Positions 344 through 20,831 of a stretch of 40,153 nucleotides of DNA are shown piece after piece. The translations under genes and the position numbers were made by a program. This stretch comes from a virus: UHGV virus genome UHGV-1363914; one strand, written 5' to 3'. Below the pieces are notes generated by a model that worked only from the letters and a program-made list of their open reading frames with translations, did not search any database and was not told the DNA's origin. Within the stretch, counting starts at the first letter, position 1. Every line of letters begins with the position of its first letter.

Positions 344-724
344 ATGAAAGATTTAATTAATCAAGTGGTAGGATATTTGGCAGGTTTTAGTGTAGAACAA
401 TGGATATGGATAGCAGGAGCAGGAGCAATTTTAATTTATCTTATTTACAACAGAAAACAGTATGTAAATTTATTTAGACAATCAGTAATTTTTGCAGAAG
501 AAAGTTTTAATCACGGGGAAAATAGAAAAAAACTAGAAGCAGCAGTAAATTTTATTCTATTTAGAACTTCAAGTTTACCTTGGGTAGCAAGAATTATAAT
601 TATAAAATTTATCAGTAGAAAAAGAATGATAGATATTATAGAAAAGACATTGCAAAAGTTTTCTGATATCTTCGCAGCTGGCCATAAGGTAGATATAAAA
701 GGTAATGAAGATGGAGAAAACTAA
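344..724 (+). CDS. holin, LL-H family-like (N-terminal TM helix)
   Basis: Strong RBS AGGAGG 8 nt upstream. The N-terminus has one hydrophobic helix (GFSVEQWIWIAGAGAILIYLIY), followed by a GENRKKLEAAVNFI segment that matches the Holin_LLH pattern. It sits in the lysis cassette. Confidence 0.55.
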   Translation: MKDLINQVVGYLAGFSVEQWIWIAGAGAILIYLIYNRKQYVNLFRQSVIFAEESFNHGENRKKLEAAVNFILFRTSSLPWVARIIIIKFISRKRMIDIIEKTLQKFSDIFAAGHKVDIKGNEDGEN

Positions 725-1163
725 ATTAAAATTAGAGTTTATTTCAAACAAAAAAGCGGTTTTACTCCAAGATTATATCTACTCTATTAATGGTTATGAT
801 ATTAAGGTATTTAGAGGTTTCATCACTGATGGAGCCTCTGTACCTAAATCTTTACGATGGTTATATAATCCTTATGGCAAATACATTAATGCAGCAGTTA
901 TCCACGATTATTTGTATTCAATATACAATAATACTGGTATAAATAGAACTCTTGCTGATAAGATATTTAACTTTATTATGAAAGAAACAGGAGTAGATAA
1001 CAGGACTAGAAGAAAATTTTATATAGCAGTTAAGTATTTTGGTGAAACATCTTGGAAGTCTAAATTGAAAAATGAGGGGTACAAGGATAGAGCTGCTATA
1101 GATAGGACCAAAGAAGCCAGAGAGTATTATAACCATTGGTATAAAGTATTAGGGATTAGGTGA
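705..1163 (+). CDS. DUF1353-family phage protein
   Basis: The motif FITDGASVP ... AAVIHDYLY matches the DUF1353 signature (TDGASIP / HD.LY). It overlaps the holin stop, suggesting translational coupling. The start could instead be the ATG at 711. Confidence 0.55.
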   Translation: MKMEKTKLKLEFISNKKAVLLQDYIYSINGYDIKVFRGFITDGASVPKSLRWLYNPYGKYINAAVIHDYLYSIYNNTGINRTLADKIFNFIMKETGVDNRTRRKFYIAVKYFGETSWKSKLKNEGYKDRAAIDRTKEAREYYNHWYKVLGIR

Positions 1164-1167
1164 TATT

Positions 1168-1356
1168 ATGGAAAAAACTTTACTGGAATATGGCGTATTA
1201 GGGGCTATTTTACTGTATTTTCTATGGAAAGATAGTAAGACATTTGAAATTTATAGAACTACTATGCAGAAGATAGTAGACCAGTTGGAAGCAATGCAAA
1301 AGGACCAATCAGAATTAAAAAAAGATATGGAGGAGATTAAAAAAATCATAAAGTAA
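1168..1356 (+). CDS. small membrane protein (N-terminal TM helix plus C-terminal coiled coil), putative lysis accessory
   Basis: The 62-aa protein has a hydrophobic stretch LLEYGVLGAILLYFLW followed by a charged coiled-coil tail. It is the last gene before a strong terminator and sits in the lysis cassette. Confidence 0.45.
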   Translation: MEKTLLEYGVLGAILLYFLWKDSKTFEIYRTTMQKIVDQLEAMQKDQSELKKDMEEIKKIIK

Positions 1357-1357
1357 T

Positions 1358-1391
1358 GGGGTAGGATTTTGTCCTGCCCCTTCTTTTTTTT
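1358..1391 (+). terminator. rho-independent terminator ending the lysis operon
   Basis: Stem GGGGTAGGA / TCCTGCCCC (9 bp, one G-U pair) with loop TTTTG, followed by TTCTTTTTTTT. Confidence 0.6.
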
Positions 1392-1631
1392 ATTTGTTAA
1401 ACTTATGATTTTATGAAGTGTTTAGATGTATTAAAAAAAATTTAAAAAACCATAAAATTAAGATGATTTTATAAAAAATAAATATAAAAATATTATGATA
1501 AATATAAGAAAATAAATAGTATAAACTTCAAAGGTGTAGAATTAGTTTAATTACTAATCTATGTTTAAACTAATAATACCAATGACTTTTAAAAGCGTTG
1601 GGCTTAAAATGGACTTAAAAAATTTAAATGT

Positions 1632-1660
1632 AAAAGACGGTTTTATATGCCGTCTTTTTT
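1632..1660. terminator. bidirectional hairpin terminator at the end of the repressor operon
   Basis: Stem AAAAGACGG / CCGTCTTTT (9 bp) with a 9-nt loop and T-runs on both strands. The loop contains the stop codon of the minus-strand ImmA-like gene. Confidence 0.5.
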
Positions 1661-2005
1661 GTTCAACACAGATATCATATATTCGTGTGATTCTGAGTAT
1701 AAATGTGAATATATGTTTAAGGTTGTTTCTATTTTCTCATGCCCTAAAGTGAATCTAATTCTTTTCTTTCTTTGGGTATTGTAGAAAATGATATAGTTTT
1801 CTCCATCATACACTGTAAATCCATCTAAAGAAACCTTAGCTTGCTCATCAAAATCAGTATATTCATAAAGAATTATATTCAATTCTTCTTTTAAACTGTC
1901 TATAAGTAAATATATATCACCCTTAGACATTTCTACTTTTGGATTTGAAATAAAGTCTGATATTATACTGTAAAGTTCTTTATAATTAACCAAAATAAAA
2001 TACAC
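1643..2005 (-). CDS. ImmA/IrrE-like (DUF955-like) protein, truncated or degenerate: no intact HEXXH
   Basis: It lies immediately downstream of the XRE repressor on the same strand, the classic immR-immA arrangement. The motif IIFYNTQRKKRIRFTLGHE resembles the ImmA consensus (I.IN....RQRFT.AHELGH), but the second His and the C-terminal half are absent. The start is uncertain (GTG at 2005 or the internal TTG). Confidence 0.4.
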   Translation of the reverse strand: MYFILVNYKELYSIISDFISNPKVEMSKGDIYLLIDSLKEELNIILYEYTDFDEQAKVSLDGFTVYDGENYIIFYNTQRKKRIRFTLGHEKIETTLNIYSHLYSESHEYMISVLNKKDGI

Positions 2006-2007
2006 CT

Positions 2008-2322
2008 CTACTTTTTCTTAAAACTTAATACAATTTTTTTAATAGTTTCCTGAGTAGAAGAATCTAAATTTTCTATTTCTCTCGCAAGCATCCTTACTTC
2101 ATCATTATCTTCTCCATTATAAAGAAAATCTAATGACACTCCAAAATAAGCTGCAACTCTCTGTACTTTATCTATAGAAGGTATTGAACTTGACCAATTT
2201 CTTAGTGTTCCATTACCTAAATCTGCCCTCCTTTCCAGTTCTGCTCTTGTAATTTCTTTTTTCTTTAGTAGGTCATCGATTCTTCTTAAAATATTTTTTC
2301 CTACATCTTTTCTGTTTTTCAT
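2008..2322 (-). CDS. XRE-family HTH repressor (cI-like), 105 aa
   Basis: The HTH reads ITRAELERRADLGNGTLRNW. GGAGG lies 7 nt upstream of the ATG at 2322. The longer track ORF (to 2478) would read through a consensus promoter and looks non-coding. The gene is divergent from the cro-like gene. Confidence 0.7.
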   Translation of the reverse strand: MKNRKDVGKNILRRIDDLLKKKEITRAELERRADLGNGTLRNWSSSIPSIDKVQRVAAYFGVSLDFLYNGEDNDEVRMLAREIENLDSSTQETIKKIVLSFKKK

Positions 2323-2382
2323 TAATAATCCTCCACAAAGTATTGGATTTCCTTTACTTTTATTAATGTTAAAAAAAAAACA

Positions 2383-2411
2383 TTGACAAATGTTAGGTTT
2401 AGCATTATAAT
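2383..2411 (+). promoter_or_regulatory. near-consensus sigma70-type promoter TTGACA-17-TATAAT
   Basis: TTGACA at about 2383, a 17-nt spacer, then TATAAT, lying in the cI/cro intergenic region. A TTAGCAT motif abuts it. It is rightward-facing. Confidence 0.4.
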
Positions 2412-2560
2412 AAGCATATGAATTTATTAGGAACTCCTTAATGTAAATAATCAGACGCTGAATATTAAATGCTACCATCTATCTTTATTGGTAGACTAGA
2501 TATATCGTTTAAAAATAAAAAATATTTGGAGTTTAGAATAAGTATTTTTTATTGTGCTTA

Positions 2561-2587
2561 CATATTAGCATATTTAGCATATTTAGC
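2561..2587. repeat. three tandem 9-bp repeats CATATTAGC / ATATTTAGC / ATATTTAGC: candidate operator sites
   Basis: The repeats are read directly from the sequence. The same TTAGCAT core recurs near 2398 and 2417. They lie between the divergent repressor and cro-like genes. Confidence 0.45.
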
Positions 2588-2676
2588 ATTTTTTGTCAAT
2601 ATATTTGCTAAGAATTTATAGCATAAAAAATGTAAAATTTACTTTTTACAATCTAATATGAAAAAAGGAGGTATAT

Positions 2677-2865
2677 ATGACAAGATTAGATTTTGAAATG
2701 GAGGTAAAAAGAGTATTAAGAGAAAAAGGTATCACTCAAGCAGAATTATCAAGACTACTTGGAATAAAACCATCTTATTGCTCTGACATAATTAGAGGAA
2801 ACAGAAATGGAGGAGATGTTAAGAAAAAAATGATTAAATTCCTTGGAATTAAGGAGGTTTTATGA
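2677..2865 (+). CDS. Cro-like small HTH regulator (62 aa)
   Basis: AAGGAGG RBS. The HTH reads ITQAELSRLLGIKPSYCSDII. It is divergent from the repressor. Confidence 0.65.
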   Translation: MTRLDFEMEVKRVLREKGITQAELSRLLGIKPSYCSDIIRGNRNGGDVKKKMIKFLGIKEVL

Positions 2866-3596
2866 CTGAACTAAGATTAAAAAATCAAATAACAAGTTTG
2901 GAATTACTGGATCAAGTAAATCTTTTTAGAAAAGAAGAGTATAAGGAAAAGTTAAAAAATAATACTCTTACGCAAGCTGAAAAGAATAGAGGAAAGTTTG
3001 TTAAATTAGAACATAAAACATTATTAGAAATAATAAGAGATGAATTTTCAGTAGAAATAAGAGAGCAAAAAATTTTGCTGTCCTCTTACAAGAACTCTCA
3101 AAATAAGGAACAACCAATGTTCATCTTAACTCTTAATCAAGCTAAACAAGTTTTATTGAGAGAAAGTAAATTTGTTAGAAGAGCGATTATATCTTATATA
3201 GAAGTATTGGAACAAGCAATTTTAGATAAAACTAAGAGTGAGTGGCTACTAACAAGACAACAAGGAAAGTTGGTAAGAAGAGAAGAAACTGATGCTATTC
3301 AAGTATTAATAGAATATGCAAAGAAACAAGGAAGTCAACATTCAGAAAAACTATATATGACTTATAGTAAGTTAGTTAATTCTTTGATAGGGATAAAAGC
3401 AAATTCAAGGGATAAGGTCGATTTTGGAATATTGATGGTAATAAGACAATTAGAAGATATGTTTACAAAACTAATAACAAGTTCTATGGAAAATAAAATA
3501 CATTATAAAGAAATTTATAAGATCTGCAAAAATCAAGGTAGTCAATTTATAGAAATTGTTAATGGGAATGTGAAAAGCTTAGGATATGTAAATTAA
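2862..3596 (+). CDS. Rha-family phage regulatory protein / antirepressor-like
   Basis: The N-terminus (ITSLELLDQVNLFRK...KLEHKTLLEIIRDEF) resembles Phage_pRha. ATGA overlap with the cro-like stop. Confidence 0.5.
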   Translation: MTELRLKNQITSLELLDQVNLFRKEEYKEKLKNNTLTQAEKNRGKFVKLEHKTLLEIIRDEFSVEIREQKILLSSYKNSQNKEQPMFILTLNQAKQVLLRESKFVRRAIISYIEVLEQAILDKTKSEWLLTRQQGKLVRREETDAIQVLIEYAKKQGSQHSEKLYMTYSKLVNSLIGIKANSRDKVDFGILMVIRQLEDMFTKLITSSMENKIHYKEIYKICKNQGSQFIEIVNGNVKSLGYVN

Positions 3597-3607
3597 AAGG
3601 AGAGAAT

Positions 3608-3742
3608 ATGGAAGATTTATATTTCAAAAATCATGAAGCAAGATTAATATTTGGGCTTGCAGAACTTGAGGGTAAGGCTCAACTAGATTTACTAGGGATA
3701 GATTTGGAACACTATTCTAATAAGGAATTGGCTAAGAGTTAG
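3608..3742 (+). CDS. small hypothetical protein (44 aa)
   Basis: AAAGGAGAG RBS then ATG at 3608. The only support is the ORF plus its RBS. Confidence 0.3.
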   Translation: MEDLYFKNHEARLIFGLAELEGKAQLDLLGIDLEHYSNKELAKS

Positions 3743-3851
3743 TACTCAGAAACAAAGAGAAAAATAGTTAATAGCAGTCATCCAAGGTTAGAAATAGCCT
3801 TAGTAAACTTGGAAAAACTTTATAAAGGGATGAGATAGAAGAGGTGTAAAA

Positions 3852-4121
3852 ATGAGAAAAATAGAAACTATACAAGATAAATTTAAAATATTTGAACATA
3901 AGGTAAGTAGACCAGTGGTGTATAGAGAAATCTACGGAATTAATCAACTTAGTGCATTTGGTAGAGATAGCTCATATTCATCTTGGGATTTTGTTGGAAC
4001 TAGCAGAGAAGTTAATGAATATGAAAAAAGATGGTGCAGCAGAGGCTCAAATGGTTTTGATTTTATAGGAGTGGAAATTATAAAAGGTTTTCAAGGACAA
4101 ACTAATTATTACGGGAAATAA
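3852..4121 (+). CDS. hypothetical early protein (89 aa)
   Basis: ORF with a GAGGTG RBS. No recognisable motif. Confidence 0.5.
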   Translation: MRKIETIQDKFKIFEHKVSRPVVYREIYGINQLSAFGRDSSYSSWDFVGTSREVNEYEKRWCSRGSNGFDFIGVEIIKGFQGQTNYYGK

Positions 4122-4131
4122 GGAGTGAAAA

Positions 4132-4254
4132 ATGAACTGTAAAACTTTTAAAAAATGGGTAAATATAATAGCTTTTCCAGCAGGAATTAAGCTAGTTGAT
4201 GCAGTTGAAATTATTGAGAAGTACATAGAAATGGAGGCTAATAATGGGAAATGA
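4132..4254 (+). CDS. small hypothetical protein (40 aa)
   Basis: AGGAGTG RBS 5 nt upstream of the ATG. A short ORF, not in the track. Confidence 0.25.
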   Translation: MNCKTFKKWVNIIAFPAGIKLVDAVEIIEKYIEMEANNGK

Positions 4255-4374
4255 TGATTTCAAAAAAGCCAGTGTAATGAAGGTTGTTAAATTTAAGGTT
4301 AAGTGGTTATTAAAACTAATTTTGTACTGCATAAATAGACCAATAGAAATTTTATTAGAATGGGCGTGATGTAT

Positions 4375-4599
4375 ATGACTGAGTTTGCAGATGTAAATAG
4401 AGTAATTGAATTATTAGGTTGTAGTCAAGCAATGGCATATAAAGCTATTAGGACACTTAATTCTGAACTTAAAGAAAAAGGTTTTTTAACTATACAAGGG
4501 AAGGTGAATGAAAATTATTTGAGAGAAAGATATGGTTTAGAAAAAAGAAAAACATCTGTTGACAGCGACCAAACTAAAACAGATGTTCAAAACAAATAG
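4375..4599 (+). CDS. small HTH DNA-binding protein (excisionase/HTH_17-like)
   Basis: The protein is TEFADVNRVIELLGCSQAMAYKAIRTLNSELKEKGFLTIQGKVNENYLRERYGL. The helix-turn-helix followed by a 'GkV....L....GL' tail is typical of MerR/Xis-like small phage regulators. The start could be 4360. Confidence 0.45.
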   Translation: MTEFADVNRVIELLGCSQAMAYKAIRTLNSELKEKGFLTIQGKVNENYLRERYGLEKRKTSVDSDQTKTDVQNK

Positions 4600-4630
4600 G
4601 GTAGGTAAACCCTTACTTACCCTTGATTTT
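4599..4630 (+). terminator. putative hairpin terminator
   Basis: Stem GGGTAGGTAA / TTACTTACCC (10 bp, one G-U pair) with loop ACCC, then TTGATTTT. Confidence 0.35.
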
Positions 4631-4665
4631 ACTACAAATAATAAAAAATATCAAGGAGGAATTTT

Positions 4666-5007
4666 ATGTTAAAAGCCAAATTTATAGACAAAATATTAGA
4701 AGTTATGCAAGAAGAAGCCCATAAAATTTGGATAGATAATAAAGAAGTTACTGTTTGCTTTAAGGATTCAAAAGATGTAGATGGTAATGCTGAAATACTT
4801 AAACATATCTATACTCTACAACTTAATAAGGTTGTTGGAGAGTACAGAATTTGTATAGATTATGAGTTTAAAAATATAGAAATTCATAAAGGAACTAAGT
4901 TTGTATGTTTAAGAGGTTTTGGAAAATATGGAGTAACAGGAATCTGGACGATGATTTTAGAAGAAATTGAAAAAGATAAGGTGAAAAATAATGAAAATAA
5001 GAGTTAA
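4666..5007 (+). CDS. hypothetical early protein (113 aa)
   Basis: ORF with an AGGAGG RBS. Confidence 0.5.
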   Translation: MLKAKFIDKILEVMQEEAHKIWIDNKEVTVCFKDSKDVDGNAEILKHIYTLQLNKVVGEYRICIDYEFKNIEIHKGTKFVCLRGFGKYGVTGIWTMILEEIEKDKVKNNENKS

Positions 5008-5290
5008 TCAGTTTTATAAGAATGTTGAATGTCCTCGTGAATTTGTTTGTGCTCATTGTGGAGCTCATGTCTATGTTATAGATCCAAAAGATAAAAGAGT
5101 AAAATACTGCTCTTCTGCTTGTGAAAAACAGTACTGGAGAGATAAATCTAAACAAAATGCAGCTTACAAAAAAAGAAGTCGTGAAAAAGTCCTTGGACTT
5201 AGAAATTACAGTGCAAAAGGTATGGCAATCAAGTTATATAAAGAAAAGAAAGAAGCTGAAGAAATGGATTGGAAGGAGAGAAAAGAATGA
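4991..5290 (+). CDS. zinc-ribbon protein (CxxC...CxxC)
   Basis: ECPREFVCAHCGAHVYVIDPKDKRVKYCSSACEKQY supplies four Cys in two CxxC pairs, followed by a lysine-rich tail. Confidence 0.5.
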   Translation: MKIRVNQFYKNVECPREFVCAHCGAHVYVIDPKDKRVKYCSSACEKQYWRDKSKQNAAYKKRSREKVLGLRNYSAKGMAIKLYKEKKEAEEMDWKERKE

Positions 5291-5514
5291 ATACACTATC
5301 TGATTTGAATACAAAGCTATTTGAACAGTTGAATAATTTAAGCAAAGAGAATATATCATCTGAAGAACTTGAAAAAGAAATAGCTAGAAGCGAATCCATG
5401 ATAAAGATAGCAAATGTAATTATAAGTAATGGTGATTTAGCTTTAAGAGCAGCAAAATTTAAAGATGATATGTTAAATGCTGATAATAAGCTACCAAAGA
5501 TGTTGGAAGGTTAA
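5287..5514 (+). CDS. hypothetical protein (75 aa)
   Basis: ATGA overlap with the upstream stop and a GGAGAG RBS. The track start at 5269 is less likely. Confidence 0.45.
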   Translation: MNTLSDLNTKLFEQLNNLSKENISSEELEKEIARSESMIKIANVIISNGDLALRAAKFKDDMLNADNKLPKMLEG

Positions 5515-5517
5515 AAA

Positions 5518-6123
5518 ATGAAAAGAAAATATACAGATGATATTATAGATTTTTTAAGGGAAATTGCTCCTGGAAAAACCTATAAGGAAATAGCTGAAAT
5601 ATTTAATAAAAAATATGATTTAGGCATGACAGTTGACAAATTAAGTAGTTTACTAAGCCGAAAAAAGATTAATACTGGAACTTTAAGACGATTTAAAAAA
5701 AACTATATTCCTTGGAATAAAGGAAAGAAAGGGTATATGGGGGCTAACAAGACATCTTTTAAAAAAGACCACAAGCCTAAAAATTGGCTACCTGTTGGAA
5801 GTGAAAGAATTAATGATGAAGGTTATACACTAATAAAAGTTTCCAATGAAAACAGTATGTGGCAAAGATGGGCTCTGAAACATAGAGTAGTTTGGGAACA
5901 ATATCACAAAAAGAAGATTCCAAAAGGTGCTGTAATCATATTTGCGGATGGAGATAGAAGCAACTTAGACATAGATAATTTAATCTGTGTAACAAGAAAT
6001 GAATTGAAGGTTCTTAATAAATGCAGATTAATTAGTTCTGTTCCTGAGTTAACTAAGACAGGATTGAATATAGCTAAGATTAAAATTAAGTTGGCAGAAA
6101 TAAGAAAGGAGAAGAAATATTGA
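5518..6123 (+). CDS. HNH_3-like endonuclease-family protein with an N-terminal HTH; the catalytic His appears replaced
   Basis: HRVVWEQYHKKKIPKGAVIIFADGDRSNLDIDNLICVTRNE aligns to the HNH_3 consensus (HR.VwE...G.iP.G..vdHidGd..NN...NL...t..eN), but it has FA where the first His is expected. Confidence 0.45.
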   Translation: MKRKYTDDIIDFLREIAPGKTYKEIAEIFNKKYDLGMTVDKLSSLLSRKKINTGTLRRFKKNYIPWNKGKKGYMGANKTSFKKDHKPKNWLPVGSERINDEGYTLIKVSNENSMWQRWALKHRVVWEQYHKKKIPKGAVIIFADGDRSNLDIDNLICVTRNELKVLNKCRLISSVPELTKTGLNIAKIKIKLAEIRKEKKY

Positions 6124-6857
6124 ATATAAGAGAATATAATGCTCAAAATATGGGAAAACAAGTTTTAGTGCTACAAGAAAAAGAAATAAAAAGTTTAATG
6201 CACTTTTCTAGTATAGCTAAAAATCAAGAGTTAAATGGACTAATTATTTCTGGGAAATATGTTGGGGTTACAGATACTTACAGAATGGCAGTAATAAAAG
6301 ATACCAGAGAAGAATTACAAGGCTCAGATAAGATGATGATGTATTCAGCAGACGCATTAGAAGAACTAAAAAAGGCACACTCTATGGCAGTTCTAAACAA
6401 TGGGAAGTTAGCCATTCAAGTAGGTAGTGAAGTAACGGAGTATGAACCTGTAAACAGGGAAAGAGTACCCGACATTAAGGTATTTATTGAGGGTTATGAA
6501 TATGGAAGCCATACAAAAGCAAGATCGTTAAACAAGATTACGGATGATTTAGTTTGGAAAATGCTAAAGCTGATAGATAGTTCTGATGAAAAGAGATATT
6601 TCTCTTTTGAAGATGGAAAACTAATAGTAGAAGCATATCCAAATGGAAATTCTGTACTGCTGCTAGATGTTTTAGAACTAGACAATAAAGGATCTAAGTT
6701 AAAAACTACTCTAAATTTTAAATATATGGACTTATGGCTAAAGTATGTGAAAGATGAAAAATTTGATATTGCTTTAGCTAAAAATAATAGGAATGCTTGT
6801 CAGTTCAGAAAGGATAATCTATTTTATATAGTTATGCCTGTGGCATTAAGAGATTAA
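6120..6857 (+). CDS. DnaN-like sliding-clamp candidate (short, about 2 domains)
   Basis: The C-terminus (LNFKYMDLWLKYVKDEKFDIALAKNNRNACQFRKDNLFYIVMPVAL) matches the beta-clamp C-terminal consensus (FNakYLlDvLkal...v.l.l.....p......yvvMPmrl). Confidence 0.4.
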   Translation: MNIREYNAQNMGKQVLVLQEKEIKSLMHFSSIAKNQELNGLIISGKYVGVTDTYRMAVIKDTREELQGSDKMMMYSADALEELKKAHSMAVLNNGKLAIQVGSEVTEYEPVNRERVPDIKVFIEGYEYGSHTKARSLNKITDDLVWKMLKLIDSSDEKRYFSFEDGKLIVEAYPNGNSVLLLDVLELDNKGSKLKTTLNFKYMDLWLKYVKDEKFDIALAKNNRNACQFRKDNLFYIVMPVALRD

Positions 6858-6862
6858 AGGAG

Positions 6863-7189
6863 TTGATAGAAATGACTAAAATAGAAGAAGTACTGGAATA
6901 CTTAAGATGTAATACTTATGCAACGAATAAAGAAATAGCTGAAGATTTAAAAATGGGAGAGGGAGTTGTTAAAACATATTTAAATAGATTAAAAAATAAA
7001 GGATATTTAGAAAAAGTAGGTTCTGAATACAAGGTTTTAAAAGAAATGCCTGTTAACAAATCTAGCTATAAACAAGAAATTATAAAAGAAATGTTAGAAG
7101 TTTATATGGATGATTTTAGAGAAATTAAGGTAATCAATGAAAAGATTAGAGTTGGGGAACTTATTATAAGACTTGTAGATAAATTGTAG
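6863..7189 (+). CDS. winged-helix DNA-binding protein (DeoR/TrmB-like HTH)
   Basis: VLEYLRCNTYATNKEIAEDLKMGEGVVKTYLNRLKNKGYLEKV is a wHTH pattern. Confidence 0.45.
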   Translation: MIEMTKIEEVLEYLRCNTYATNKEIAEDLKMGEGVVKTYLNRLKNKGYLEKVGSEYKVLKEMPVNKSSYKQEIIKEMLEVYMDDFREIKVINEKIRVGELIIRLVDKL

Positions 7190-7198
7190 GAGGACTAA

Positions 7199-7303
7199 AT
7201 GACAAAATTTTTAATAAATGGAATTTGGTATGAATTGGTGTTAGAAGATAATGGTATAGCAGTTTTACAAGATATGTATGACAGACAAACATACAACTTT
7301 TAA
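7199..7303 (+). CDS. small hypothetical protein (34 aa)
   Basis: AGGAGG RBS 5 nt upstream of the ATG at 7199, with a stop at 7301-7303. Confidence 0.35.
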   Translation: MTKFLINGIWYELVLEDNGIAVLQDMYDRQTYNF

Positions 7304-7352
7304 ATATAAAGTACCACAAATTTTAAAAAATTGCAAATAGGAGGATAAATAA

Positions 7353-17909: not shown

Positions 17910-17916
17910 TATTACT

Positions 17917-17982
17917 TTGTTAAAACCTTGTTAAAAAGCTGTTAAAAATGCGTTATTGTACTGTTAGTTTTAATGTGTTAGT
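17917..17982 (+). promoter_or_regulatory. direct repeats TTGTTAAAA x3 (11-bp phasing) plus two TGTTAG copies: candidate activator sites / late promoter
   Basis: Repeats start at 17917, 17928 and 17940, with further TGTTAG at 17962 and 17977. They lie directly after the ArpU-like gene and upstream of the tRNA and terS. Confidence 0.4.
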
Positions 17983-18219
17983 ATGGTAGCATGTAGCAAA
18001 GTTTAAAGATTCCTCTTTAAAAATTGTGGTAGTAGTTTGAGACTCTACTATAAAAAAGTCTTGCCATAATAATGTCAATACTCTCACAGCACTTAGATGT
18101 GCAGGATACGTTCCTATGTGGGAGTTTTTTTATTGATTAGCCCACTTTCAGTATTATATTGGCTATAAACAAAAATGCGAGTCAAAGTGCACAAAGGTAG
18201 TTATTTGCTACCTTCGACT

Positions 18220-18304
18220 GGAGAGTTACATTAATGGTAAATGAGCAGTCTGCTAAGCTGTTGTCCTGATGGACTTATAGGTTCGAGTCCTATACTCTCC
18301 TCCA
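18220..18304 (+). tRNA. tRNA-Ser (anticodon GCU), class II with a long variable arm
   Basis: Manual fold: acceptor GGAGAGT/ACTCTCC (7 bp). D-stem CATT/AATG with a GG-containing D-loop. Anticodon stem GCAGT/GCTGT with loop CT-GCT-AA (U33 present). 15-nt variable arm with GTCC/GGAC stem. T-arm ATAGG-TTCGAGT-CCTAT. Discriminator T then an encoded CCA. Confidence 0.75.
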
Positions 18305-18403
18305 AATAAAGATATAAAAGTTTAAAAAGTTCTAAAATAGAACATATTGAAAGATTATAACAGATATCAATTGGCGAAATAGGTTCTTTCAGAATATAAA
18401 AAA

Positions 18404-18433
18404 GCCGAGAGGGTCTCGCGAGTCCCGAGCTCC
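18404..18433. other. GC-rich near-palindrome (GGGTCTCGCGAGTCCC core): candidate cos site
   Basis: GCCGAGAGGGTCTCGCGAGTCCCGAGCTCC is a strongly GC-rich island in an AT-rich genome. It contains the 8-bp palindrome CTCGCGAG within a 16-bp imperfect palindrome, about 60 bp upstream of a lambda Nu1-like terS. Confidence 0.4.
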
Positions 18434-18484
18434 ATCTGAATATTGACCAAAAATTTAACAATTTCCGTTCCAAAGGAGTGAAAA

Positions 18485-19063
18485 ATGAACACAAATGAAA
18501 AAATCGTTAGCAGCCCTGAACTTGCAGAAATGTTTGGGGTGAGTGATAGATATATCCGTATGCTTGCACAAGACGGCATTGTAAAGAAAAGTGGAGCTAG
18601 AGGTAAATATTTACTCGTTGAGAGTGTAAAAGGTTTCATTGAGTTTGTTAAAGAACAAAACTCAGCTGATGTTGATTTGAAAGACACAAAACTCAAAAAA
18701 GAAACTGAAAAAATTGAAAAAGATATAGAGCTAAAAAGTATAAAAATATCAGAATTGAAAAATGAACTGCATTCAGCAGAGATAGTTAAGAAAGTTATGA
18801 CAGTTATGCTTACAAATTTAAAGGGTAAATTGTTAGCAGTTCCTAACAAAATTGCCCCTTTGATTGTGGGTTGCGATAATCTTGGAGATATCCAGGATAT
18901 AGTTTTGAGTTCTATAGAAGATGTTTTGCTGGAGTTAAGTGATTATAGCCCAGAGTTATTTAAAAATAAAAATATAATCCTGGAAGATGAAGAAGAGGTG
19001 GAAGATGAAAAAAGCAAAGGAAAAGGATCTAATAGAAAATCCAAGTCTAAGAAAAACAATTAA
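18485..19063 (+). CDS. terminase small subunit, lambda Nu1-like
   Basis: The N-terminal wHTH SPELAEMFGVSDRYIRMLAQDGIVKKSGARGKYLLVESVKGFIEFV parallels lambda Nu1 (KKQLADIFGASIRTIQNWQEQGMPV...GKGNEVLYDSAAVIKWY). It is followed by a gpA-type large subunit. Confidence 0.7.
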   Translation: MNTNEKIVSSPELAEMFGVSDRYIRMLAQDGIVKKSGARGKYLLVESVKGFIEFVKEQNSADVDLKDTKLKKETEKIEKDIELKSIKISELKNELHSAEIVKKVMTVMLTNLKGKLLAVPNKIAPLIVGCDNLGDIQDIVLSSIEDVLLELSDYSPELFKNKNIILEDEEEVEDEKSKGKGSNRKSKSKKNN

Positions 19064-20831
19064 TCTATTTGCTGACATATTCCAAACATTGAAGCCTCCT
19101 CCAAAGTTGACTATAGATACTTGGGCTGATTCGTATAGGATTTTAAGTTCTAAGACATCAGCTGAACCTGGAAGATGGAAAACAGATAGAGTACCTTTTC
19201 AAAGAGAAGTAATGAAAGCTATCTCAGATAAAAAAACAAGTAAAATTGTAATGATGTATGGAGCTCAGTTATCTAAGACTGAAATTTTACTGAATGTTTT
19301 TGGTTATTACGCCGATTATGACCCTGCTCCTATCATGTATCTTTTGCCAACTAAAGATTTAGCAGAAGATTTTTCTAGTACAAGACTTGATGACATGATA
19401 CAAAGTACACCTCAACTTAGAAATAAAATATTGAATAAGGTTGATGGTAGAGATACAAAATTACAAAAGGAATTTGTTGGTGGATATATCACACTTGTTG
19501 GAAGTAATTCAGCAGCAGAATTATCAAGCAGACCTCTTAGAATATTACTTGCTGATGAAGTAGACAGATTCAAAAGTGATGTTGGAGGAGAGGGTGATCC
19601 TTTAAACTTAGTGATAGAAAGAACAAAAACTTTCTGGAATAAGAAAATAGTTATAACAAGCACACCTACAATCAAAGGGGAATCAAGAATAGAAAAAGAA
19701 TATGAAAATTCAACAAAAGAAGAATTTTATATACCTTGTCCTAAGTGTGGTTCTTTTCAAAAATTAGAATGGAGAAATATAGTTTTTGAACCTGTTGGGC
19801 ATAAATGTTCCGATTGTTTAGAAATATCCTCTGAACATGAGTGGAAAAGAAATATGATTCATGGAATATGGCAATCACAAGAAGAAATTGAGGATTGGAG
19901 TGTTAGAGGTTTTCATATTTCGGAGTTATACAGTCCTTTTTCAACCTGGCCAGAAATTATAAAAAAATTCAAAGCAGCAAAAGGTAATGCTCAGATGATG
20001 AAAGTATTTACTAATACTTGTCTTGGTCAAACATGGGAAGAAAAAGTAGAAAAAATTGATTTTTTGGATATTTCAAAAAGAAAAGAAGAATATAGTGCTG
20101 AAATTCCTAACCAAGTTCAAGTTTTAACTGCTGGTGTTGACATTCAAGACGATAGATTAGAAATTGAAGTTGTAGGTTGGGGATTAGGTGAAGAATCTTG
20201 GGGAATTTATTATAAACAGTTTATAGGCTCTCCTGGACAAAATGATGTATGGGAACAATTGGATAGATTTTTGGAAACTGAGTTTAGTTATGATAATGGA
20301 GAAAAGATAAGAATTTTATGTACTTGTATAGATACTGGGGGCCATTATACTCAGGAAGCATATCAATACATCAAGCCGAGAGAATTTAGAAGAGTATTTG
20401 GAGTAAAAGGGAAAGGCGGAGATGGGGTAGCTTTTGTATCTAAACCATCAAGAACAAATAGAATGCAAATATCCTTATTTACACTTGGAGTAAATACTGG
20501 TAAAGAAACAATACTTGCTAGATTGAAAATAAATGAACCTGGTTCTATGTATATGCACTTTCCAAGTAATATAGATAGGGGATATGATGAAGTATATTTT
20601 AAAGGATTAACATCTGAGGTTAAGACAACTGTATGGGAAAAAGGAGTTAAAAAGACTATATGGAAAGTTATAGGAACAAAAAGAAATGAGCCTTTGGATT
20701 TAAGAAACTATGCTTATGCAGCATTAAAAATAGCAAATCCAAACTTAAATAAAAAATATACTGTTGAAGCAACCAAAAAGAATGTGAAGGTACAAAAAAG
20801 AAGAGTTTTATCAAAAGGAGTGAGCTTATAA
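18987..20831 (+). CDS. terminase large subunit, lambda gpA family
   Basis: Strong gpA-like stretches: GRWKTDRVPFQREVMKAISD, VFTNTCLGQTWEEK, VLTAGVDIQDDRLEIEVVGWGLGEESW. The start is either 18987 or the ATG at 19005, which has a GAGGTGG RBS. Confidence 0.85.
   Translation: MKKRWKMKKAKEKDLIENPSLRKTINLFADIFQTLKPPPKLTIDTWADSYRILSSKTSAEPGRWKTDRVPFQREVMKAISDKKTSKIVMMYGAQLSKTEILLNVFGYYADYDPAPIMYLLPTKDLAEDFSSTRLDDMIQSTPQLRNKILNKVDGRDTKLQKEFVGGYITLVGSNSAAELSSRPLRILLADEVDRFKSDVGGEGDPLNLVIERTKTFWNKKIVITSTPTIKGESRIEKEYENSTKEEFYIPCPKCGSFQKLEWRNIVFEPVGHKCSDCLEISSEHEWKRNMIHGIWQSQEEIEDWSVRGFHISELYSPFSTWPEIIKKFKAAKGNAQMMKVFTNTCLGQTWEEKVEKIDFLDISKRKEEYSAEIPNQVQVLTAGVDIQDDRLEIEVVGWGLGEESWGIYYKQFIGSPGQNDVWEQLDRFLETEFSYDNGEKIRILCTCIDTGGHYTQEAYQYIKPREFRRVFGVKGKGGDGVAFVSKPSRTNRMQISLFTLGVNTGKETILARLKINEPGSMYMHFPSNIDRGYDEVYFKGLTSEVKTTVWEKGVKKTIWKVIGTKRNEPLDLRNYAYAALKIANPNLNKKYTVEATKKNVKVQKRRVLSKGVSL

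Follow-up and report, generated by a model that had tools for sequence, protein, structure and literature searches.

A probable lambda-type cohesive-end site upstream of the terminase genes in virus genome UHGV-1363914

Where does the DNA of the virus UHGV-1363914, a Fusobacterium phage, begin and end when it is packaged? The window analysed here is the whole 40,153-nt sequence, and a first-pass annotation had proposed that a GC-rich block at 18404-18433 (GCCGAGAGGGTCTCGCGAGTCCCGAGCTCC), lying upstream of the small terminase gene terS, is a candidate cos site. The letters and coordinates of the block were verified as exact. We conclude that the block is very probably cosN of a lambda-type cohesive-end site spanning about 18380-18475. 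The proposal is supported by the gene set around the block, by contigs that start at 18412 and by register with the measured end of phage Lily. Such a site is an ordinary and already known kind of element. What is newly added is its placement at the level of single bases, obtained from relatives with measured ends, the cosQ-like and R3-like subsites lying outside the block, and the view that the palindrome of the block is incidental.

The left genome end is supported as G18412 by two independent lines, namely contig starts and register with Lily-type ends, and the left ends derived in these two ways coincide to the base. Three ENA contigs encoding exactly the TerS of the window begin at the same base, GGTCTCGCGAGTCCC..., which is G18412. 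They are ERZ772953 (assembled with SPAdes, 13.8 kb), ERZ27263089 (MEGAHIT k119, 7.0 kb) and ERZ988826/ERR589437 (MEGAHIT k127, 2.9 kb). ERZ772953 (L119) differs from the other two (L120 and L121) at 9 sites, and therefore at least two strains are represented. We also looked up the TerS variants P0051, P0001, P0008, P0011 and P0022, and the only further start in the block was that of L132, a Logan contig of another TerS variant, which starts at GCGGGTCT, 3 nt upstream of the equivalent of 18412.

A TerL search of phage records led to phages of the gpA clade in which the linear record opens a short way before terS. Comparison with the cos sites of other Nu1/gpA phages had been suggested as a check by the first-pass annotation, and the left ends of Lily, Shimadzu and Lelie all align with 18412. 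The ends of Lily are a 12-nt 5' overhang, GGTGCGCGTGAG, established by ligation, PCR and Sanger sequencing (PMC4472882; also PMC6070908). The Lily record starts GGTGCGCGTGAGCCCGAAATCC, with base 1 at the equivalent of 18412, and its overhang is followed by CCCGAAATCC. In the Shimadzu record, GTGCTTGCGAG precedes CCC and is an 11-nt repeat present at both ends. PhageTerm called 5' cohesive ends for Lelie, and its record was rearranged to start at cos (PMC11792537); the record begins GGTCCGAAAGCCCGAAAATTTT. The cos of Lagaffe was found by PhageTerm upstream of termS (PMC5883640). The first base of the Lagaffe record falls 5 nt inside the aligned cohesive end, and the nd4 record, with the 9-nt GCTGGCGAG repeated at both ends, also starts inside it, so the junctions of these two were re-registered; once this is done, they too align with 18412.

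Around the nicks these phages have a common layout. The cohesive end is GC-rich, 9-12 nt long and begins G(G)T; (G)CG precedes the nick in most of them, and the bases next after the cohesive end are CCC(G/A)A in Lily, Shimadzu, Lagaffe, Lelie, nd4 and Pioen. The full pattern of the Lily/Shimadzu type, G(G)TNC...GCG(T)GAG and then CCC(G/A)A, with (G)CG before the nick, is found at the site in the Fusobacterium group, where the majority reads GCG, GGTCTCGCGAAT, CCCGA and the window itself reads GAG, GGTCTCGCGAGT, CCCGA. At the nick, GCG is followed by GGT in most relatives and in Lily and Shimadzu, and ACG by GGG in lambda; the CG flanking the nicks is conserved across lambda-like phages (PMC4669245). 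Upstream of the nick, a GGT[ACT]CT core starting at -28 to -31 is shared by Lily, Shimadzu, Lagaffe, Lelie, nd4, Pioen and L079, a distant relative. In this row of the layout the window has TAGGTTCTTT, Shimadzu TAGGTTCTTC and Lily AAGGTACTTT. Downstream, AAAATTT lies at +31 in Lily, +34 in lambda, +37 in Shimadzu and +39 in the window, and an R-like site, (C)GTTTC(C)GTT, lies at about +50. A cosQ-plus-R3 composite derived from the reference phages fitted the window only at anchors 18409-18413 of about 80,000, 18412 included.

The functional unit is larger than the block, a cos module of about 95 bp at about 18380-18475. In lambda-type sites cosQ lies about 24-30 bp upstream of the nick, and GGTTCTT (18382-18388), whose cosQ role is predicted, starts at -30 from the predicted top-strand nick. 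The upstream element that contains it (18377-18403) is at least 99% conserved in 81 unique Fusobacterium-type sequences, with GGTTCTT in 81 of 81, and further 5', beyond 18377 (beyond AAATAGG), the relatives are mosaic in sequence. Between this element and the nick lies a variable spacer; its variants GTCAAGCG, GTTATGAG, GTTATGCG, TTTGTGCG and GCCGAGAG each stand before an invariant GGTCT. CCCGA on the other side of the predicted cohesive end is kept in most of 118 compared loci, a minority having CCCAA or CCCAG. The bottom-strand nick is most likely 5' of this CCC (18423/18424) by homology, and the length and polarity of the overhang are predictions that follow from this placement. By the register of Shimadzu, an 11-nt cohesive end finishing at 18422 is an alternative. 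A 14-nt overhang, with nicks symmetric about the centre of CTCGCGAG, was judged less probable than one of 12 nt, since in the measured relatives the palindrome is missing and the nick falls immediately 5' of CCC.

The R3 site of cosB is expected at about +48 to +65, and TTTCCGTTC lies at +51 to +59, where TerS binding is predicted. It is the only exact copy in the window, and TTTCCGTTCC is kept in nearly all relatives. The same 9-mer is lambda bp 55-63, the core common to the R3 sites of lambda and N15 (PMC9026076). No convincing second or third R copy was found within 18300-18800, the R3-like site ends 14 nt from the terS ATG, and the R3-I1(IHF)-R2-R1 arrangement of a complex cosB is absent. 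This indicates that cosB is of the simple N15 type and not the R3-I1-R2-R1 type of lambda. The A/T-rich tract before it is a candidate bend or IHF/HU-type site. Among Fusobacterium relatives the sequence of the tract is variable, always A/T-rich and often furnished with short inverted repeats. It was also observed that the stretch 18434-18461 and its equivalents (L012, L013, L024, L110, L113, L132) occur in at least four unrelated A/T-rich versions, some holding inverted repeats of their own (ATGAA...TTCAT; GGAAGTG...CACTTCC), and that the length from cosN to the R3-like site is roughly constant while the sequence is swapped.

How close is this site to known cos systems? With lambda it shares homologous TerS and TerL, a lambda-family portal and the order cosQ-like element, nick, A/T tract, R3-like site and terS. 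The cosQ-like core lies at -29 in lambda and -30 here, the lambda core being GGTCCT within the heptamer GGGTCCT (bp 48473-48479), reportedly named cosQ by Wieczorek and Feiss 2001. The 9-mer TTTCCGTTC lies at +55 in lambda and +51 here, and both cohesive ends are GC-rich and start with GG. The lambda cohesive end is, however, GGGCGGCGACCT, with ACG and CG at its nicks, whereas it is GGTCTCGCGAGT here; terS starts at +191 in lambda and at +74 here; R2, R1 and I1 are missing and a single R element is present; and the host here is in Fusobacteriota, the genome has 31% GC, and the 12-nt length and 5' polarity are predicted by homology. Like the simple cosB of N15, the site has one TerS site at the R3 position by cosN and no I1 or R2 before terS, but in N15 an inverted accessory copy, rR2, lies within terS at a distance of about 200 bp (PMC4669245). 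When an rR2-like copy was sought, the only minus-strand matches had 2 mismatches (18702 and 18752) and were unconvincing in an AT-rich gene.

Among the gpA-clade phages, Lily has a TerL 44% and a TerS 33% identical to those of the window (TerS BLASTP 1e-28). Its left end can be laid over that of the window without gaps as GGT, nine variable bases, CCCGA, two variable bases and TCCA, with 15 of 26 bases identical by hand count, and it has AAGGTACTTT at -28, AAAATTTT at +31 and TTTCCGTT at +55. Lily, a Paenibacillus larvae phage, differs in the internal bases of the cohesive end, in terS at +156 and in a host in Bacillota. Roseburia phage Shimadzu and Faecalibacterium phages Lagaffe and Lelie have TerL proteins 39-46% identical (PMC5883640, PMC11792537). 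In Shimadzu TAGGTTCTTC at -29 almost equals TAGGTTCTTT of the window, and terS starts at +79 (+84 in Lagaffe, +74 in the window). The cohesive ends of these three phages are different, GTGCT(T/G)GCGAG (11 nt in the Shimadzu record) or GGTCCGAAAG, and Lelie has an extra open reading frame (ORF) between cos and its Nu1-like terS.

The block had been noticed for its composition and its palindrome. It is indeed the most GC-rich 30-nt stretch of the window (22 G+C of 30, the runner-up having 19, at an overall GC of 31.3%), and among 20-nt stretches it again ranks first, whereas it shares the top rank at 40 nt and comes second at 50 nt. Since a binomial estimate gives 0.11 windows this GC-rich per 40 kb, the composition alone is moderately unusual and not extreme. 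The CpG count tells more: the whole window has 227 CpG against about 920 expected from base composition, a strong depletion, and the block has 4 within 30 nt in spite of this CpG-poor genome. The perfect 8-bp palindrome CTCGCGAG (18415-18422) lies as annotated inside the 16-bp near-palindrome GGGTCTCGCGAGTCCC (18411-18426; one pair mismatched, 14 of 16; centre between 18418 and 18419). The window has just five GC-rich palindromes of 8 bp, this one included. The distance to terS, given as about 60 bp, is 51 nt from the block end and 66 nt from the dyad centre to the ATG at 18485. In lambda-type cos sites, cosN has partial two-fold symmetry around the nick pair. A palindrome is present here, but it is degraded in most relatives and absent from Shimadzu and Lily, and about 99 of the 118 related loci carry CTCGCGAA or other non-palindromic variants. 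The palindrome is therefore not the conserved feature, and comparison of these sequences suggests that it is incidental to the cos site.

What is conserved is the module. Pattern scans of IMG/VR and metagenome contigs yielded about 120 related loci on Fusobacterium phage contigs (118 compared; 82 unique sequences). They share AAATAGGTTCTTTCAGAAWATAAAAAAG, a 7-nt variable spacer, GGTCTCGCGA(A/G)T followed by CCCGA(G/A)CT, an A/T-rich tract, TTTCCGTTCC, a ribosome-binding site (RBS) and terS. The module is kept with the terminase genes in L079, Shimadzu, Lily and lambda, whatever sequence precedes it. In contrast, the whole module is absent from phages that have an identical regulator protein and the identical next 160 nt but pac-type Terminase_2/3/6 genes, which indicates that the element belongs to the Nu1/gpA packaging cassette and is not the late promoter.

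This bears on a different explanation of the block, that together with its left flank it is where the ArpU/RinA-like regulator encoded upstream acts, on a late promoter or operator, to switch on the terS-terL operon. A DUF1492/sigma-70 region 4-like regulator is encoded 500 nt upstream, the 575-nt gap has to contain a late promoter, and the left flank has a TATAAA-like hexamer. We nevertheless consider this explanation highly improbable, because the TAGGTTCTTTCAG element and the GC block are missing from the pac-type phages that share the regulator, the 160 nt and three TGTTAAAA repeats, because the element travels with the terminase genes, and because a sigma-70 scan gave no promoter at this site. 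The three TGTTAAAA repeats stand right after the regulator gene at 11-nt spacing (17918-17925, 17929-17936 and 17940-17947), and this stretch is probably the regulator's target and the late promoter. Could the dyad instead form a hairpin, as a minus-strand intrinsic terminator (CGAGACCCTCTCG and then a T-rich stretch) or a structured 5' leader of the terS mRNA? A consensus scan found one terminator-like site, on the minus strand at 18418-18406, and the near-palindrome lies in the block. Folding of either strand of the block was, however, no better than that of shuffled sequence (z = -0.47, -0.74, +0.78); the 5-bp stem needs the spacer GCCGAGA, specific to the window, in place of which most relatives have GTCAAGC; the neighbouring genes are all on the plus strand; and an Rfam search matched only the neighbouring tRNA. 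A hairpin function thus has next to no probability in our assessment. It might also be supposed that the block is a chance GC-rich stretch and that the contig starts are assembly artefacts. In its favour are the composition, which as noted is only moderately unusual, and the fact that several apparent ends near the block (in L007, L019, L028, L030, L039 plus L063, and L074) proved to be storage chunk boundaries inside longer contigs and were discarded. Chance is scarcely credible against near-invariance over the 82 unique sequences beside mosaic flanks, the same start base in three assemblies with k from SPAdes defaults up to 127, and base-for-base register with measured ends of phages from other phyla.

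The remaining alternative concerns the mode of packaging: the block could be a pac-type initiation site, cut once per concatemer with headful packaging thereafter, which would leave the DNA terminally redundant and partly permuted. In Pioen, TerL is gpA-type (37% identity) and the site has the same layout, and this phage was called headful by PhageTerm, although the authors of that study noted excess reads at the genome start (PMC11792537). The record of this Faecalibacterium phage (L165/L166, PP479940.1) starts at the junction GCG/GGCTCGATGACCCCGAAA, has AGGTACTGT upstream at about -32 and has TTTCGTTACGG downstream. Pioen appears to show the same cos layout, and its published headful call may deserve re-examination. 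Against a pac site, the nearest relatives whose ends have been determined are cohesive-end phages, as ligation and Sanger sequencing showed for Lily and PhageTerm, with a 5' cos call, for Lelie. The Shimadzu and nd4 records bear their 11-nt and 9-nt terminal repeats, the cosQ-like termination element is conserved, and TerL is gpA-type and not Terminase_1/3/6, the pac-type modules beside the same regulator being without this element. We therefore regard a pac site as very unlikely.

Apart from the Pioen call, several observations weigh against a cos site with ends at the predicted bases. A contig ending at the predicted right end (18423) was sought, including via the upstream regulator, and none was found. 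Contigs L120 and L121 are identical and may stem from one sample. The IMG/VR contigs L054, L058 and L066, from the sister metagenomes 3300009961 and 3300009964, break inside the block but off the predicted nicks, with ends at about 18416 (...GCGGGTCT) and 18417 (...GCGGGTCTC) and a start, CCACCTG, at about 18432 (equivalent window positions); they are the only whole IMG/VR contigs breaking in the block, and eroded ends or strain-variant graph breaks are possible explanations. When the cos junctions of four phages (Lily, Shimadzu, Lagaffe and lambda) were made into an nhmmer profile, that profile missed the site, its best window matches having E >10 and lying elsewhere, and it was replaced by the anchored composite-motif test. 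The cosQ-plus-R3 composite occurred somewhere in 37 of 300 shuffled windows (12%). The likeness at the DNA level is one of short motifs in register and not an alignable stretch. Cohesive-end length varies among relatives from 9 to 12 nt, so that the 12-nt overhang is only the best guess. Finally, the paper describing the nearest named relatives, Fusobacterium phages JD-Fnp2, JD-Fnp3 and JD-Fnp5, mentions neither termini nor packaging.

On the cohesive-end reading, packaging can be modelled on the lambda cos mechanism as reviewed in PMC4669245; this model predicts that TerS binds at the R3-like site, and what the cosQ-like element and the A/T tract would do. After circularisation and rolling-circle replication, the Nu1-like TerS would bind the single R3-like TTTCCGTTC, and the A/T tract between this site and cosN would aid TerS, probably by supplying a bend. 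The gpA-type TerL, thus positioned, would make its top-strand nick between G18411 and G18412; the nick in the bottom strand would fall about 12 nt further right, most likely between T18423 and C18424. The virion DNA would thereby receive 5'-protruding cohesive ends GGTCTCGCGAGT. Packaging would then proceed rightward, through terS, terL, the portal gene and onward, round the 40,153-bp unit, and would stop at the next cos, where the cosQ-like GGTTCTT (-30) is expected to serve the terminal nick.

The local order around the site, all on the plus strand, is regulator, tRNA-Ser, block, terS, terL, DUF6148 adaptor and lambda-family portal (coordinates in Table 1). TerL has Pfam matches to GpA_ATPase (2.4e-77) and GpA_nuclease (7.1e-86), which confirms the gpA type assigned to it at first sight; its gene call in contig L119 begins at locus position 594. 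TerS had been described as having a clear Nu1-type winged helix-turn-helix. Its homology to Nu1 stands, but the match is modest rather than clear. TerS belongs to PHROG family 57 (phrog_57, E 6.2e-26), it matches lambda Nu1 in BLASTP with 1e-9 over 139 aa, and its best PDB matches are the lambda Nu1 chains 6hn7 and 1j9i. A PDB search with a profile of 11 TerS homologues had lambda Nu1 chain 6hn7_B as its sole match (E = 0.0011), and a Pfam scan of TerS gave no Phage_Nu1 match. Judged by homology, the set of gpA-type TerL, Nu1-homologous TerS and lambda-family portal is that of lambda-type cos packaging.

Table 1. Coordinates of the predicted cos module and of neighbouring genes in the 40,153-nt window
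Feature	Position	Strand	Remarks
ArpU/RinA-like regulator (DUF1492/sigma-70 region 4), 146 aa	17469-17909	+	
tRNA-Ser, anticodon GCT	18220-18304	+	between late regulator and cos
Conserved upstream element AAATAGGTTCTTTCAGAATATAAAAAA	18377-18403	+	with cosQ-like core GGTTCTT(T), 18382-18389
Variable spacer, cosQ-like element to nick	18404-18410	+	GCCGAGA here; GTCAAGC in most relatives
GC-rich block as first reported	18404-18433		probable cosN part of larger cos module
Predicted cohesive end (cosN) 5'-GGTCTCGCGAGT, 12-nt 5' overhang	18412-18423	+	predicted nicks 18411/18412 (top) and 18423/18424 (bottom)
Conserved right flank of cosN, CCCGAGCTCC	18424-18433	+	
A/T-rich tract, cosN to R-like site	18438-18461	+	AAAATTT 18450-18456 (+39)
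R3-like candidate TerS-binding site TTTCCGTTC	18462-18470	+	+51 to +59; identical to lambda bp 55-63
terS, Nu1-like small terminase subunit, 192 aa	18485-19063	+	RBS AAAGGAG 18472-18478
terL, gpA-type large terminase subunit	18987-20831	+	start 19005 per gene callers

The place of the site in the window agrees with this. An amidase/endolysin ORF crosses the window end into its start (1-30, 40100-40153), and the junction is contiguous in phage vB_FnuS_FNU4, which indicates that the window shows a complete 40,153-bp genome in circularly permuted form. The physical genome ends therefore fall in the middle of the window, as the first-pass annotation had anticipated, and circular permutation of the whole genome is what is expected when cos lies inside an assembled circle. 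The records of JD-Fnp2, JD-Fnp3 and JD-Fnp5 (DNA 85% identical; TerL 95%) are likewise circles, opened at arbitrary points. The end of the FNU_1P record near homologous upstream sequence was rejected as a terminus, since that record was merely re-opened at the terS ATG and its terminase is different and non-gpA. In the predicted virion DNA the tRNA-Ser(GCT) comes at the far right, and relatives L122-L127 carry tRNA-Ser or a different tRNA at the same place.

The region also shows how packaging modules are exchanged. The same 146-aa regulator (L122, L123, L125, L127) precedes three of them, Nu1/gpA, Terminase_2 plus Terminase_3 plus SPP1 portal, and Terminase_2 plus Terminase_6N, which points to a sharp mosaic joint between the regulator and the packaging genes. 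Phages whose terminase modules are quite different (pac-type) share the 160-nt stretch 17910-18070 without change. In the distant relative L079 (Ga0182742_1001661, 13884-14000; TerL 48% and TerS 34% identical), the Fusobacterium-type TAGGTTCTTTCAGAAAATAAAAAG is kept almost exactly and is joined to a Lagaffe/nd4-type cohesive end, GTGCTGGCGAG; from this sequence, the left and right cos halves appear to recombine at the nick. The only match to a 22-nt cosQ-region pattern among GTDB species representatives, L162 (CAYJXL010000017.1, a 45% GC metagenome-assembled genome labelled Candidatus Woesearchaeota), was rejected as a chance match; neither a GC block nor a terminase follows it.

Two further contigs, L101 (OEAP01002056.1; cos at 250-345) and L086 (ODVX01016032.1), carry the same cos module with no Nu1/gpA terminase after it. 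In L101 the module consists of the cosQ-like element, GGTCTCG(C/T)GAGT and the R3-like GTTCCGTTC. Its genes at 574-9526 include a lone Terminase_2-type terS, a YefM/YoeB pair, two XRE repressors, Rha-like and Dit-like genes and a D5_N/DUF5906/Pox_D5 (D5/P4-type) primase-helicase, and no terL, portal or capsid gene is present on this 10.7-kb contig. We tentatively propose, as something possible rather than probable, that L101 and L086 represent a cos-hijacking satellite resembling phage-inducible chromosomal islands, and that the cos layout is common to lambda and to phages of Fusobacteriota and Bacillota with offsets within 1-4 bp. If this is true, L101 and L086 would be the first candidate cos-hijacking satellite in Fusobacterium, and the constancy of the layout would make the cohesive ends of the whole gpA clade predictable from sequence alone.

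The understanding of cos packaging itself is unchanged by this finding. What it fixes is the physical map of a phage group. The genome would start at GGTCTCGCGA(G/A)T with terS leading the gene order, and its right end would carry the regulator and tRNA-Ser. JD-Fnp2, JD-Fnp3, JD-Fnp5 and many oral-metagenome contigs are now deposited as arbitrarily opened circles. Fusobacterium nucleatum is hard to manipulate and is relevant to colorectal cancer, and the site could be of use for annotation, for PhageTerm-free prediction of termini and for cos-plasmid or cosmid-like transduction tools in this species. It would also mean that the cos layout of lambda, including the exact 9-mer of the R3 core, persists in phages of very distant hosts.

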